This document shows, one piece after another, positions 52,982-60,749 of a stretch of DNA of 64,000 bases (positions within the stretch are counted from its first letter, which is position 1; each line of letters opens with the position of its first letter). Under the pieces are notes generated by a model that did not search any database, had not been told where the DNA came from, and saw only the letters and a program-made list of their open reading frames with translations. Made by a program: the position numbers and the translations under genes. The stretch covers positions 47,926,001-47,990,000 of the forward strand of contig OZ231126.1 in assembly GCA_965153355.1 (NCBI GenBank), given 5' to 3'. This DNA comes from Flaccisagitta enflata (taxonomy: Eukaryota).

Positions 52982-55900
52982 ATGACAAGGCTCACTTTGG
53001 TTGTTTTGCTCATTAATATCATTATCCGAACTAATTTTCTCGCGGCAAAATCAACAATCTCAACATTTCCTCCCCAGAAAAGTATGTACTAAAACCGCAT
53101 AGAAAAACCTGCAAAAGTTTAAGTGGTTTTTCCCATCGCAAATGTACAAAAGTCTTTTGAAAAGATATTCATTTCATAAGCATTGCATATTAGGAAGTCG
53201 CCATTCCTTTGAATTTGATTTACCCGCTGGAGGTTCAACGCGGCGAGGGAAGGCGTCCACGGCGGGCAGTCATTATCGTAGTGACGAATATGATTATCTA
53301 TTTGATCCATACTGGGAATACAGGTTAGGCCGGATGTCGCCTTGGAAAATGAGTTTTCAAATTTTTTTTATTATTTTGCGAATCAGAAAAAGATCAAAGG
53401 AGTGAAAAAGATGAAAATATTTTCTAGGGTTGTATTTTTGTCTTTTGAATATATCTGATTGTTTGGCACGCTAAACATCCGACAAGATCCATCTCGATTA
53501 CCAGAGCTTATTTTGTATTTTTCTATCCATTTTCAGCCTCATGGAGGACGAGGAAATCCACAAAAATGAAGCAATGAAAAGCGATGGATTGAGTCAAATT
53601 TTCAAGGTGATAACTGATATTCGCCCAACTTATTACGAGATGGGTTTGGCTATGTTTTCAGTTTAGCCATTATAATTATTTGAAACGTTCCCCAAATTGT
53701 TTTTGTCTCGCATATAAACAATGTACTAATTTATAATACTAGTTGACAATCACACTTCGTTACATAGATATCGGCAGCTGGTAGTAAAGTCAGCCAGTCG
53801 TCTACTCAAAGCGAAAATTTGGTATTGGGTAATCACAAAAGAAACATAACTCTTTTAAAGCAGGGTTTCAATCGGTTGGACGGTTCCATCGCCGCGTCCC
53901 CTCCACGGAGAGGCGAAGAAGTTTCTCACCGTCATCATCCAGATGTGTGGCAAGGGAAATTGGGCCAAGAAGATCAGCGGAGGAAAGTTGGCGGAACGAG
54001 AAGAGTTGGTGGTGGGAAAGTAGGTGAACGAATTTCCGGGGGAGGAGTGCCGAGGATTGGAAATGATAATGAAGATGAAGCGATTGACGAGAGCGTTGAA
54101 GAAATGGACACGATGGATAAGAGTGACGGCGGGAGTCACTTTTTGGAAAGCGAAGAAGGCGAACATAATTTAAGCCCTCAAAACCGATCCATTTCCACGG
54201 ATAAGAGACAAATGAGATTTCAAGTAAGAAGTAACACAAAGAAATGGCGCCACAAAAGTTAAGTCATAAATACATAATGCATTACACAATTTCTGGTGCG
54301 GGGCCCCAAAACGGTTTGTAAACAAGACGGTTTACATCATAGGACGGTTTTCGATCATACCGTTCTCTAATCAGAAAATCAACTTCTTTGTAGATTTCGG
54401 CATTCTCGCGACAATTCGCGTCTAACTAACTAGCGGGCTGAAATACTGAAATTTCCTGCTAGTTACGACTAACTAGACCATTTATTCTGATGCACATGAA
54501 AGGCGGGCCTCTTTGACCAAGGATACGTCATGTTATATGTTAACCAGCAGTAAACGAGAAAATAAAAGAATGCAACTGCTTCCATTTATTTCAAGTGAAA
54601 ACAAAGACCACCAAAATAAACGCAGAGAGAGAGAGAGAGAGAGAGAGAGAGAGAGAGAGAGAGAGAGAGAGAGAGAGAGACAGACAGACAGAGAGAGAAA
54701 GAGACAGAGAGAGAAAGAGAGAGAAAGAGACAGAGAGACGGAGAGACAGAGAGTGAAAGAGAGACGTAGAGACAGACGGAGAGACAGAGACGGAGAGACA
54801 GAAATGGAGCGACTGAGATAGAGAGACTGAGACAGAGAGACTGAGACGGAGAGACTGAGACGGAGAGACTGAGACGGAGAGACAGAGACGGAGAGACAGA
54901 GACGGAGAGACAAAGACGGAGAGACAAAGATGGAGAGAGACTGAGAGATAGACACGAGGAGACAGATACGGAGAGATATATAAGTCATGAGTTTTAAAAT
55001 GACAACCTCACCTGTTTCAAAATGCAATTTTTCATGAAATTTTTAAGCTTTCAAGTGTATGATACGCTAGGGTGCTTCACATAGCAAAAGCTGCGAGTAT
55101 CCCTTCACCCTACTTGGGTAATGTGGAGGAGCAAAAATCATGAAGATGATCATTTTCCTTTTTCATAATTCTCCGTCTTCCGTTTTTGTTTTGGCCTTAA
55201 ACTTCCCACAGATTTCCCTGAATTCAGCAAAATCCTGTGTAGTTTTATTACAAAAAGGACATTTATTTGTTTTAAAAAATTACAATATTTGTAACAAATA
55301 ACTAAAATATTAGAACATAAGCTATGAAAGAGCTTGTAAAAAAGCAGAATTATAATTCTATGTAAAGTAGAAATTTGTAAAAGCTAATTCATATAATGTC
55401 TGCATATTGTTTTATCCCACTTCATTATGCAAAGTAGGTCCTCAAAAACAATTGTCTAAAAAAAGGAAGATGAACAATTTTTGATAAAAAAAATGTTAAG
55501 ATTCTTAAAATTGACCACTCCACAATAGGTAAACAGAGCGAAAGGAAAAAACCAACTTTTGCTATGTGAAGCACCCGAATGATACGCCTAAAGTATGGAT
55601 TTAACGGGAAAGCACTCAAAGAAAATAAGTTTACAGTTGTAGACTAGATGCGTTGTCCGTCTATCTGTTGATGTTTTCTGTATGTGTGGAGAGGCGGGGT
55701 GAACGCCTCTTCCCTATGTCCACGACGATTTTGCAACTTTTTCCTCGCCGATCTCCATTACGTAATCATAACAATTCGTCCGTTGCTTAACCTCTAAAAT
55801 TTGCTTCTGAAATGAGAAAAACATTAGGGCACACCGTCTTTTTACATGACGTGAGTTGTTGTAGTCGCTTACACGTGACTCTATACCTGGCTGATGCGAT

Positions 55901-58900: not shown

Positions 58901-60749
58901 ATCACTCAATTGGCTTAATTTATTTTTCCATAATGCCTGCCCCCGTTATTTCAAGTCTATACAGAATCTACTGTAGCTACTCGCATTTCGATTGAAAGAC
59001 CTGATTCCTCGGATGATTACTGTGTATCAAATGCATTGACTTTATTCAGGGGAACAAAAATTTAAATGAGAATGAATTTTTGAAATCTTACGACACAAGT
59101 AGAAAGTGCGACAACATCAGCGGACATGATAAGCGTAATTGCATCTTTTTAAATCAAATTAGAAAATCCTGGTGAGGTCAATATTTGTCGAACTAGTTGA
59201 TGTTGAATAAAATGATTGGCTGTTCTGCCTTATGCAATGGTTTCGTTATTCATTTTTTTTTCTTTCAATTTCCAGACGGATTGCACGAACGACCATAACT
59301 GCCAAGTGGGAGAGTGCTGCTTGCCTCTGTTCTTCCGGGGTGGAGTCAAGGAATGCAAACCTCTCAGGTAAAGTAAGGGAAGTCAGCGTTTTTGCACTTA
59401 CAAATATTAGTAAAATGATAATACAACCTATGTATTATAGCTAATATTCAATGCAAACAAGCCCAACTGGCCAACAGTCGCGTGCTTCGTTTTACAGTAA
59501 ACAACTACTTACATACAAACTCCTTTCCTTCCCTTCCTTCCTTCCTTTCCTCCTTCCTTCCTACCTTCCTTCCTTTCCTGCTTCCTTTCTTTCTTTCCAT
59601 CCATGAATCCTTTCTCACTCCCTTCCTTTCATCCTTCCTCCCATCCAAGGCCAGGCGATATGTATTGAATTTGGTTTACAAATTACACTTTTTTTTTTTT
59701 ATAAGAACATCACTTTTTGGGCAAGCCTTCAATGTTCTTAAATTTTGGGCAGTTTCAAGGCTTTAACGTTCTTAAATCGTTCTTAATTTAAATACAGTTT
59801 TTAACCTTCATTTAAGAACGTTCTTAATTAGTTTGAGTTTGTCATCTAAAAGCAAATGAAGGAAAACGTCAATGAAACAACCAAGCAGCAGGTTTAACTA
59901 TTTTATGTGAATGTTAAGATCAATGAAAATAAAATGATAAATTTTGTATTGAATGAGACACACTTTGCTGAACATTAAGGATAAAAAATCTAAATAAAAC
60001 AAAAATGTTCTTAAATTTTTAAAATTTCAAGCTTATGTTCTTAAATTTTTAAAAAAATAAAGGCTTCCAATGTTCTTAGCATGTTCTTAAATTTTTAGCG
60101 ATTTGAAGCCTAACGTTCTTATAAACTTGGTTCTTATAAAAAAAAAAAAGTGTACAATATTTATAAGTAATGGGTTTACCCAACATCCAATACCAATTCT
60201 TTCTTACCGAAAATCACAAATTTAACTGTAGAAAACATATTTGTCCAAAATTTTGAAATGTCATGGAGGGACAGACTGACGGACCAACCGACAGAGCAAG
60301 GCGATTAAAAAAGAATGTAGGCTTCTGTCACAAATACAAATAGCAACCCAACTCGTACCCCCCAAAGATAGTGATGCTCAAACACTCGCAAACATATTTG
60401 CTGCAGAATTTTGGTATGCCTATATCTTTACGAATAAGCCAGGTTTAGATAGTCAATGCATGAATCTTAATGTGTCTCGAACCATGCTGCACATAATAAA
60501 ATTAGCCAATATTTAAATGTTCCTATTGAAAACATTTTTTAAGGTAGTGAAAAAAATCATGTCAATATTGTATAATGTTTTATCCTTTTAAAAAACATTG
60601 ATACTTTTTCTCGATTTATCAGACAATATGGCGAGAGTTGTCATCCGAGATCACACGACGTCCCGTTCCATGGTCACAGATTATTTCCGCTCTGTCCCTG
60701 CGATTCGGGCTTAACGTGCTTTGAAGATACCTGCGTTTCTCTCATCTGA
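52982..60749 (+). CDS. 292-aa secreted precursor with a C-terminal prokineticin/Bv8/MIT1-like (colipase-fold) domain
   Basis: Exons 52982-53081, 53194-53323, 53537-53606, 53864-54223, 59276-59367 and 60623-60749, all GT-AG and in phase (879 nt). Hydrophobic N-terminus. C-terminus [67 protein letters not shown] has the 10-Cys prokineticin pattern. Confidence 0.85.
54625..54975. repeat. (AG)n grading into GAGACA/GAGACG-based repeats
   Basis: Direct reading; intronic. Confidence 0.9.
55068..55578. mobile_element. MITE with a 9-bp TSD (same family as 14341-14857)
   Basis: TAGGGTGCTTCACATAGCAAAAG..TTTGCTATGTGAAGCACCCGA; TSD ATGATACGC at 55059-55067 and 55579-55587. Confidence 0.8.
57467..57892. 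repeat. Left arm of an inverted duplication (partner 63575-64000)
   Basis: 426 bp, apparently an exact reverse complement; mirror ORFs 57522..57707(-) and 63760..63945(+) are identical. Confidence 0.92.

Follow-up and report, generated by a model that had tools for sequence, protein, structure and literature searches.

The locus studied here raises the question of whether two cysteine-rich exons that encode a prokineticin-type domain belong to one gene with a group of exons lying 5 kb upstream, and whether the product of such a gene would be processed in the manner of a prohormone. The window, i.e. the whole stretch of DNA analysed, comprises 64,000 nt from Flaccisagitta enflata. The upstream exons 1–4 and the domain exons 5 and 6 probably form a single gene, with the following features.

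52982–60749, + strand: six-exon gene model, from the ATG at 52982 to the TGA in exon 6
52982–53081, + strand: exon 1, start codon and predicted signal peptide; ends in phase 1 with the donor AAA/GTATGT
53194–53323, + strand: exon 2, predicted pro-region with a junction-split KR, an RR-GK and a Tyr/acid-rich 13-residue stretch; GT-AG, frame kept
53537–53606, + strand: exon 3, 70 nt, restores phase 0; GT-AG, open frame
53864–54223, + strand: exon 4, 120 codons, Cys-free acidic/basic pro-region ending in an invariant 16-residue block; metagenome orthologues, codon bias
54224–59275, + strand: intron 4, 5052 nt, phase 0, donor CAA/GTAAGA, acceptor ttttttctttcaatttccag/ACG; rich in microsatellites and repeats
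59237–59275, + strand: alternative in-frame ATG in the acceptor pyrimidine tract, which would give a hydrophobic leader of 13 residues immediately ahead of exon 5; translated from the T-rich tract
59276–59367, + strand: exon 5, Cys1–Cys5, first half of the prokineticin domain; Cys alignment
60623–60749, + strand: exon 6, Cys6–Cys10, second half of the prokineticin domain, TGA stop; Pfam PF06607 and Bv8/MIT1 matches

Gene model and predicted signal peptide

The coordinates given in a preliminary description of this locus were all correct. When joined, the six exons amount to 879 nt, corresponding to 292 codons and the TGA, and the frame is open throughout. All five introns of the model are of the GT-AG type and all donors score 7/9. 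A strict acceptor filter in the enumeration of gene paths left no path because it excluded two acceptors of the model itself (53194, score 0.58; 53864, score 0.47); the enumeration was therefore rerun with a filter of 0.5. Exons have a GC content of 0.37–0.54 versus 0.31–0.38 in the introns, which also holds for exon 2 (0.485 versus 0.31–0.32 in the adjoining introns) and exon 3 (0.40 versus 0.32–0.35). Exons 1–3 are predicted from splice-site and frame logic. As had been noted, the two Cys-rich exons are absent from the ORF track: their stop-to-stop ORFs measure 51 and 57 aa and have no start codon, so that an ordinary ORF list (at least 60 aa) would miss both. Scanning the window for Rfam families and tRNAs gave no match.

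Among the 38 open paths leading from an ATG to exon 4, exon 1 ranked highest in both N-terminal hydrophobicity (3.39) and mean donor score. With its hydrophobic core of 12 residues, exon 1 is predicted, as judged by hydrophobicity, to encode a signal peptide, and it would belong with the prokineticin domain. Another in-frame ATG at 52928, upstream of 52982, represents an alternative start.

The prokineticin domain

Exons 5 and 6 encode a 10-Cys domain of the prokineticin family, as described earlier. Exon 6 alone (41 aa) scores above the cut-off of PF06607 (37.3 bits versus 21.6, E 3.5e-9, profile positions 56–88 of 97), and it matches the PDB entries of Bv8 (2kra, E 8.8e-11) and MIT1 (1imt, E 1.3e-7). 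A phmmer search of the whole protein library returned six proteins at E ≤ 0.001, namely one metagenome orthologue, three proteins of the Bv8/prokineticin type and two repeat proteins, the last two being judged spurious. In the spliced domain, all 10 Cys fall into the same columns as in two vertebrate/frog relatives, and the stretch Cys1–Cys9 is ungapped; identity amounts to 31/70 and 32/80 aligned residues. The reported absence of AVITGA was borne out, since AVIT occurs nowhere in the 292-aa model and the residues in front of Cys1 read QMRFQTD.

Between the acceptor and the conserved C-terminus, the metagenome orthologue P0004 shares 88% identity with exon 6 and keeps all Cys, while the sequence upstream of the acceptor is dissimilar; conservation thus begins at the acceptor. 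P0004 was also the sole homologue of exon 6 found among longer proteins. In the ESM Atlas, exon 6 pointed to prokineticin and astakine clusters at 0.76–0.81, which are leads only. Neither a scan of the window with a self-built prokineticin-domain HMM (next best E 0.086) nor a reading by eye of the short Cys-rich ORFs from 47.5 kb on yielded a further plausible Cys-domain exon.

The Dickkopf C-terminal domain, colipase and the MIT-like atracotoxins belong to the same group of colipase-type Cys folds. Their Pfam scores remained below the cut-offs, with 13.7 versus 27, 17.5 versus 23.7 and 14.8 versus 27.5 bits, respectively. Dickkopf was rejected also for the lack of its N-terminal Cys domain, as residues 1–222 of the model contain no Cys.

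Exon 4 and the pro-region

Exon 4 is a real, conserved coding exon. Its frame stayed open in only 3 of 5000 mononucleotide shuffles, and the first codon position shows G and T at 0.42 and 0.12, respectively. Four metagenome ORFs are orthologous to it, at 94, 87, 86 and 59% identity, and all indels among them are in-frame. The last 16 residues, including KR-QMRFQ, are identical in all four. In the most distant orthologue, 32 of 65 residues are identical before this block, 16 of 16 within it and 1 of 3 after it, the single identical one being the Val encoded by the bases of the GT donor. Neither conservation nor frame nor stop is maintained beyond the donor at 54223; one close relative is frame-shifted there and two read through. 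The invariant end with KR-QMRFQ coincides with a conserved GT donor, whose phase 0 is the one required by exon 5. On the N-terminal side of KR, the conserved block reaches 10 residues, further than cleavage alone would account for.

The preliminary description had proposed a propeptide of ~190 aa with several basic sites; in the model, its length is 193 aa, with A22 taken as the last residue of the signal peptide. Basic sites lie at KR33-34, RR50-51, RR115-116, RRK139-141, RR146-147 and KR214-215, of which RR115, RRK139 and RR146 are retained in the three close exon 4 orthologues. The accompanying proposal of co-released peptides, such as an 11-residue segment, found no support: none of the six sites is directly preceded by Gly, so the model holds no Gly-dibasic amidation signal, and an LFV motif is likewise missing. 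AlphaFold2 modelling of exon 4 from a 5-row alignment gave a pLDDT of 57, a pTM of 0.10 and no secondary structure, consistent with a pro-region that is predicted to be disordered.

Exon 4 matched no Pfam family, no homologue among longer proteins (211–2000 aa) and nothing usable in the ESM Atlas. The search of metagenome contigs with exon 4 gave 582 pattern matches and no relative; genome contigs searched with alignments A3 and A1 and viral contigs searched with A3 also gave none. Alignment A1 picked up three metagenome loci (L001–L003, GC 0.64–0.71) and a single viral locus (L004), which were discarded as chance matches of 12–15 and 15 residues, respectively. A literature motif search with peptide words of this protein returned chance matches only (German text).

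The predicted link between exons 4 and 5

The splice from 54223 to 59276 is predicted from several features of the sequence. The 16-residue block is invariant right up to the donor and identity is lost after it, while the stop that follows the donor in the window is not kept in the relatives. The donor is in phase 0, as required by the strong acceptor of exon 5, whose textbook form (pyrimidine fraction 0.89) implies an upstream exon. Intron 4 yielded no competing exon with a signal peptide: none of its 42 candidates running from an ATG to a phase-0 GT combined a hydrophobic core with a donor score of at least 6. In addition, the Platynereis precursor has the same spacing from KR-Q to Cys1, and the exon 1/2 boundary of human PROK2 lies, to within a codon, at the same place as intron 4. 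Ten of the 100 ORFs (63–163 aa) scanned lie in intron 4, and none of these has a Pfam match; 536 of its 5052 bases recur elsewhere in the window. In-frame read-through past the exon 4 donor meets a stop at 54260–54262, 12 codons on, and AATAAA occurs at 54561 and 54615.

The junction 54223–59276, for which RNA-seq confirmation had been suggested, was looked for in three marine metatranscriptome contig sets (share of words 0.05–0.07) and in a single polyA run of the likely source organism, X4, of which about 6% of the reads were examined. No joint was found in these data, either there or at any other intron of the model. Within the ~6% of X4, no read fell on any exon. The 479 reads placed were all partial, and nearly all depth was confined to 59924–60197, with loose ends at ~60112–60147; this bin is an interspersed repeat. 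In run X1, a 319-nt contig covers exon 3 unspliced with both introns and carries one exonic difference, at 53557 (Ile>Asn in our own reading of the frame). A second contig of 985 nt covers exon 5 unspliced with both intron flanks, and shows one exonic difference (59341 T>C, synonymous by our own reading) versus four listed in the next 34 intron bases.

Comparison with precursors of other animals

The domain and the chordate prokineticins, Bv8 and MIT1 share the Pfam family, an identical Cys1–Cys9 spacing and the motif CHP-x-SH-x-VPF-x-G-x-R around Cys6. The second intron of the domain lies before the QYGESC segment here, and presumably ~12 residues further on in vertebrates. An intron one or two residues before Cys1 is found as in human PROK2, whose exon 1/2 boundary is situated between G32 of AVITGA and the first Cys, C34 (Table 2, PMC3624607); in both cases, the upstream exon holds the N-terminal motif. 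In chordate prokineticins, the mature protein begins with the AVITGA hexapeptide, right behind the signal peptide (PMC3624607), whereas here a pro-region of ~193 aa and QMRFQTD stand before Cys1, and no AVITGA follows the signal peptide. The earlier claim that this layout is unlike that of known prokineticins therefore holds for chordates but not for Platynereis and Xenoturbella PK2, both of which have a pro-region or extension.

In Platynereis dumerilii, the prokineticin precursor derived from a transcriptome consists of a signal peptide, a stretch of ~45 aa that holds dibasic sites as well as two LFVamide peptides, and then KR-Q-x6-Cys1 (PMC3890597, Conzelmann et al. 2013). The model shares with this precursor (and with that of Capitella) the signal peptide, a dibasic pro-region and KR-Q plus six residues before Cys1 of the prokineticin/colipase domain: given the predicted exon 4–5 splice, KR214-215 is followed by Q216, seven residues before Cys1, which is the annelid-type count. 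The annelid pro-region of ~45 aa differs in its two Gly-extended LFV peptides from the ~193 aa here, with neither LFV nor a Gly-dibasic signal. Read by eye against the printed sequences, the second half of the domain is much nearer to chordate prokineticins than to the annelid one.

In Xenoturbella bocki PK2, the domain follows an N-terminal extension of ~55 aa in which RKR and RR occur, and PK1 of the same species has KECKPL in common with the model and RFP just before the domain, where RFQ is found here (PMC11521371). The same report describes 'K/R-RFP-K/R' as an ambulacrarian prokineticin signature. RFQ begins 5 residues before Cys1 and RFP of X. bocki PK1 8 before, and RFQ is not flanked by the K/R residues of the signature; a possible relation between RFQ and RFP is a lead.

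In a set of 21 phoronid, brachiopod and nemertean precursors (8 partial), all 13 that start with Met have, by eye, ~15 residues or fewer between signal peptide and Cys1 (PMC8557429). The arthropod astakines and oyster Cragi-prokineticins are described as prokineticin-domain cytokines without AVITGA (PMC8398477). They resemble the present protein as invertebrate prokineticin domains lacking this hexapeptide, and differ in that their domain, as described, comes soon after the signal peptide. Two signature sequences inside the domain are given for astakines (Ericsson and Soderhall 2018, as cited in PMC11521371).

Proposed processing and alternative explanations

We propose that the locus encodes a 292-aa secreted prepro-protein composed of a signal peptide (~22 aa), a 193-aa pro-region and a C-terminal prokineticin-type domain of 77 aa, which would adopt the colipase-type fold with five predicted disulfides. 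A subtilisin-like proprotein convertase would cut after the invariant KR214-215 and thereby free a mature ligand starting with QMRFQ-TD-Cys1, whose N-terminal Gln may cyclise to pyroglutamate. The short conserved QMRFQ N-terminus may stand in for chordate AVITGA as the receptor-facing part. Processing at KR214-215, pyroglutamate formation and a receptor are all predicted features. We judge the chances of a six-exon gene whose product is cut in this way to be about even. A more far-reaching version, which we hold with considerable doubt, regards KR-QMRFQ as a convertase-made, probably pyroglutamyl, receptor-activating counterpart of the AVITGA tip, and the pro-region as a second product, either a sorting/chaperone arm or a source of peptides.

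Alternatively, the same six-exon gene may produce a protein of ~270 aa that is secreted with KR214-215 uncut, its N-terminal arm being disordered and its C-terminus formed by the prokineticin domain, with the block acting as a functional surface or glycosylated linker. The reach of the block 10 residues beyond KR, its N-x-S sequon (NRS at 207) and the occurrence of KR alone, not of a furin-type R-x-K/R-R motif, agree with this explanation. However, the Platynereis precursor has KR followed by Gln at equal distance from Cys1, and its other dibasic sites flank predicted amidated peptides. The five further di-/tribasic sites of the pro-region, three of them kept in close orthologues, are also typical of prohormones, and we regard an uncut protein as unlikely. 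It is similarly improbable that exons 1–4 encode a secreted disordered protein of their own, ending at the stop at 54260–54262 or in another exon, and that the prokineticin gene starts near exon 5, at ATG 59237 or in a small signal-peptide exon. Such a division would fit the missing junction reads (X4 covering ~6% of the run, the X1 contigs being unspliced), the read-through stop with AATAAA 300–350 nt downstream, the length of intron 4 (5 kb versus 112–257 nt for introns 1–3) and the short gap before Cys1 in the 13 Met-started precursors of the phoronid, brachiopod and nemertean set (PMC8557429). It is countered by the stop and frame past the donor, which are unconserved in all three close relatives after 16 invariant residues, by the GTAAGA donor in the one phase fitting exon 5, and by the exon 5 acceptor, which calls for an upstream exon. 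Although ATG 59237 is in frame and followed by a 13-residue hydrophobic leader, this leader is the translated pyrimidine tract of the acceptor, in which hydrophobic codons are expected by composition, and its positions −1 and −3 are not occupied by small residues; the failure of all 42 candidate first exons in intron 4 points the same way.

A decaying or silent copy, unexpressed and with exons intact through recent origin, would explain why the single polyA run of the likely source organism gave no exon reads, but only ~6% of this one run was examined. The frame is open through all six exons and their splice sites are intact, exon 4 is open in orthologues at 59–94% identity, exon 6 retains every Cys at 88% identity, and the only change that a relative shows in exon 5 is, on our own reading, synonymous. 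We consider this explanation very improbable.

Significance

Prokineticin precursors with a pro-region have already been published for annelids and Xenoturbella, and the convertase-processed precursor proposed here is thus unusual but not unprecedented, and not a new kind of system. To our knowledge, the part of the ligand that activates the receptor is known for chordates only (AVITGA). Prokineticin/astakine ligands occur across animals, and two reports describe their receptor as unknown outside deuterostomes and nemertodermatids (PMC8557429, PMC6188537). The present locus combines an unusually chordate-like domain with a short motif before it that is invariant among relatives whose pro-regions are otherwise about half identical. 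It also illustrates how split, start-less Cys-rich exons escape ORF-based annotation. QMRFQ provides a concrete candidate for a functional N-terminus in an invertebrate lineage, in the form of a defined peptide that can be synthesised. If it were indeed the counterpart of the AVITGA tip, prokineticin signalling in this animal would be a true prohormone system, unlike that of chordates.

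Gene model and exon structure

The window DNA is eukaryotic in character, with a GC content of 32–56%, many microsatellites and split genes. The six segments proposed in the preliminary description could be joined through five GT..AG introns into one open frame (52982–60749, forward strand) of 879 nt, corresponding to 292 codons followed by TGA. In all five introns, the donor matches the consensus at 7/9 positions. The exons are as follows.

52982–53081 (+), exon 1, predicted signal peptide
53194–53323 (+), exon 2
53537–53606 (+), exon 3
53864–54223 (+), exon 4, 120 codons
59276–59367 (+), exon 5
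60623–60749 (+), exon 6

Exons 5 and 6 are missing from an ordinary ORF list, as had been noticed, because they lack a start codon and lie inside stop-to-stop ORFs of only 51 and 57 aa, respectively. Among 38 open paths leading from an ATG anywhere in 51500–53863 to exon 4, the originally proposed exons 1–3 ranked first for the signal-peptide character of the N-terminus as well as for donor quality. The gene is real, intact and of prokineticin type, and ORF-based annotation would overlook it; most probably, it carries a long pro-region with a conserved end.

Prokineticin domain

Taken by themselves, the 41 residues encoded by exon 6 reached 37.3 bits (E 3.5e-9) against the Pfam family Prokineticin (PF06607, cut-off 21.6 bits), and fell under the respective Pfam cut-offs of Colipase_C, MIT-like atracotoxin and the Dickkopf C-subdomain. 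Among solved structures, the same residues matched Bv8 (2kra, E 8.8e-11) and MIT1 (1imt, E 1.3e-7). A search of 1.84 billion representatives returned six proteins at E ≤ 0.001, namely a metagenome orthologue (P0004), a Bv8-like protein with 65% identity over the matched stretch (P0007), two vertebrate-type prokineticins and two long repeat proteins; the last two were judged spurious.

After joining the exons in a script, the domain contains ten Cys. All 10 Cys columns are common to the domain, P0007 and the Bv8/prokineticin-type protein P0008; the alignment runs ungapped from Cys1 to Cys9, and identity amounts to 31/70 and 32/80 aligned residues, respectively. AVITGA is absent, and QMRFQTD precedes Cys1. 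Combined, the PF06607 score, the Bv8 and MIT1 matches and the Cys alignment bear out the earlier proposal of a ten-Cys prokineticin-type domain without AVITGA. By profile and Cys pattern, the predicted product is a member of the prokineticin domain family; because AVITGA is absent, it is not assigned to the chordate AVIT family in the strict sense. Our own prokineticin-domain HMM found no second prokineticin exon in the window (next best E 0.086), and the Cys-rich short ORFs from 47.5 kb of the window onward included no other plausible Cys-domain exon.

Coding character and conservation of the exons

Exon 4 matched no Pfam family, gave no match in the ESM Atlas and had no relatives among proteins of 211–2000 aa. 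Out of 5000 mononucleotide shuffles, just 3 left its frame open, codon position 1 shows 42% G and 12% T, and its GC content is 0.49 vs 0.35–0.38 in the adjoining introns. Decisive was a search among proteins of 66–210 aa, which yielded three relatives, all ORFs on short contigs from metagenomes; a fourth came from a cluster look-up (P0010, P0011, P0013 and P0012, with 94%, 87%, 86% and 59% identity, respectively). Within exon 4, these four differ solely by substitutions and in-frame indels. Judged by these comparisons, exon 4 behaves as coding sequence.

All four relatives share the final 16 residues of exon 4 with the window without a single change. In the distant relative P0012, identity is 32/65 before this block, 16/16 within it and 1/3 after it, the lone conserved residue being a Val read from the donor GT; a run of 16 identities at a background of ~49% is estimated at roughly 1e-5 per position. 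Beyond the donor, the window reaches a stop after 12 codons, P0010 shifts frame after 8, and P0011 and P0013 read through the stop. Since stop and frame are not kept in these three relatives, selection on the frame ends at 54223, as a splice donor would predict.

A matching pattern is seen at the other end of the gene: the metagenome orthologue P0004 shows 88% identity with exon 6 between the acceptor and a conserved C-terminus, and its sequence before the acceptor is unrelated. Exon 5 and both flanks are covered by a 985-nt contig of the marine metatranscriptome run X1, which carries one exonic difference (59341 T>C, the third position of a Gly codon by our own frame reading) vs four listed among the 34 intron bases that follow.

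Probable link between exons 4 and 5

The metatranscriptome contigs that cover exons 3 and 5 are in unspliced form, and the polyA RNA run X4 (~6% of the run read) placed 0 reads on any exon. In favor of the link, the conserved exon 4 donor is in phase 0, the phase that exon 5 requires, and no other acceptor of the gene is as strong as that of exon 5 (pyrimidine fraction 0.89). Within the 5-kb intron 4, none of 42 ATG-to-phase-0-GT candidates combined a hydrophobic core with a donor score ≥ 6, and none of its 10 ORFs, among 100 ORFs of 63–163 aa scanned, matched Pfam. The top ranking of exons 1–3 among the 38 paths to exon 4 also counts in favor of the link. According to Table 2 of PMC3624607, the exon 1/2 boundary of human PROK2 separates G32 of AVITGA from the first Cys, C34; therefore, the known layout of the family places an intron just before Cys1 and the N-terminal motif on the upstream exon. 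In the transcriptome-derived Platynereis prokineticin precursor, the pro-region ends in KR-Q plus six residues before Cys1 (PMC3890597, supplement files 9 and 10), the same residue count as in the window gene.

Against the link stand the read-through stop 12 codons past the exon 4 donor, with AATAAA 300–350 nt further, and an in-frame ATG at 59237 that opens a 13-residue hydrophobic leader; this leader is the acceptor pyrimidine tract in translation. On balance, we consider the single-gene model likely, the exon 4–exon 5 splice that carries the main claim being indirectly supported.

Proposed precursor processing

The predicted signal peptide of exon 1, judged by hydrophobicity only, would take the protein into the secretory pathway. 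The pro-region of 193 residues is Cys-free, rich in Gly, Ser, Glu, Asp and Arg, and contains six di- or tribasic sites; for the part encoded by exon 4, structure prediction with a five-row alignment gave no secondary structure (pLDDT 57, pTM 0.10). A cut behind the invariant KR214-215 would free a 77-residue ligand with five disulfides and an N-terminal Gln. Because QMRFQ is invariant between relatives with half-diverged pro-regions, its conservation suggests functional exposure comparable to that of chordate AVITGA, changes in which abolish receptor activation as described in PMC3624607.

The same gene product may alternatively, though less probably, stay uncut at KR214-215. The conserved block also takes in the ten residues before KR, an N-x-S sequon among them, which may point to this alternative; conservation there may also reflect convertase recognition or glycosylation. 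The additional small peptides earlier proposed to be co-released are unsupported, as no Gly precedes any basic site of the model.

Other features of the window

Exons of astacin metalloprotease genes that carry ShK domains occupy 8460–16238 and 29643–32132 on the reverse strand, the genes being present as two or three tandem copies.

8460–8741 (−), ShK (Pfam)
15885–16238 (−), astacin match just under the cut-off (21.9 vs 22.5 bits)
29643–29960 (−), ShK (Pfam)
30497–30745 (−), astacin, above the Pfam cut-off
30912–31319 (−), astacin, above the Pfam cut-off
31884–32132 (−), astacin, above the Pfam cut-off

A GA/CT-type microsatellite of ~1.8 kb (32400–34250; GC skew −0.68, AT skew −0.83) is followed by a GC-rich repeat block (36800–39100, 53–54% GC), open in all six frames and encoding Pro/Ser/Gly-rich repeats. 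An uninterrupted 2326-aa ORF (40427–47404, +) contains, at about 41680–43870, a 24-nt (8-residue) unit repeated ~82 times in tandem; the ORF matches solely repeat-type Pfam families (Gp5_trimer_C, extensin-like, fibrinogen-binding) and probably encodes a repetitive secreted or structural protein. This block and ORF are bracketed by a perfect (100%) 680-bp direct repeat (35194–35873 and 50137–50816, 14.9 kb apart), of which the second copy stops 2.2 kb short of the prokineticin gene start. The repeat could represent a recent duplication, mobile element ends or an assembly artefact.

Many (GA)n, (CA)n and (AT)n tracts occur across the window, intron 4 included. The intron 4 segments 56061–56170 and 57467–57892 recur elsewhere in the window, the former apparently belonging to a repeat family with the ORF RIRST..H...GLLGLV seen at 9433–9861 (−) and 15458–15787 (−). 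The bin of an interspersed repeat in intron 5 (about 60112–60147) takes nearly all 479 matched X4 reads, at 95–99% identity and continuing into unlike sequence, and word depth over this region is also very high in three marine metatranscriptomes.

Comparison with known prokineticins

The contrast drawn earlier with "classical" prokineticins holds for chordates and fits most of the spiralian sequences compared, but precursors with a pro-region were already in print. In supplement 1 of PMC8557429 (parts 24–25; 21 sequences, 8 partial), Cys1 lies within ~15 residues of the signal peptide, by eye, in 13/13 Met-started phoronid, brachiopod and nemertean precursors. The Platynereis precursor has a pro-region with LFVamide peptides, as does that of Capitella according to the authors (PMC3890597), and Xenoturbella PK2 has ~55 residues with RKR and RR before the domain (PMC11521371, supplement 1 part 1). 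PMC11521371 also describes a clade signature "K/R-RFP-K/R" beside the domain N-terminus of ambulacrarians and Xenoturbella; the RFQ of the window gene differs from it in spacing and flanks, and may or may not be related. Oyster prokineticins and arthropod astakines are likewise described as lacking AVITGA (PMC8398477). In the main texts of openly accessible papers, we found no precursor with a pro-region as long as 193 residues. The window gene extends the known prokineticin precursors with a pro-region, rather than representing a new system.
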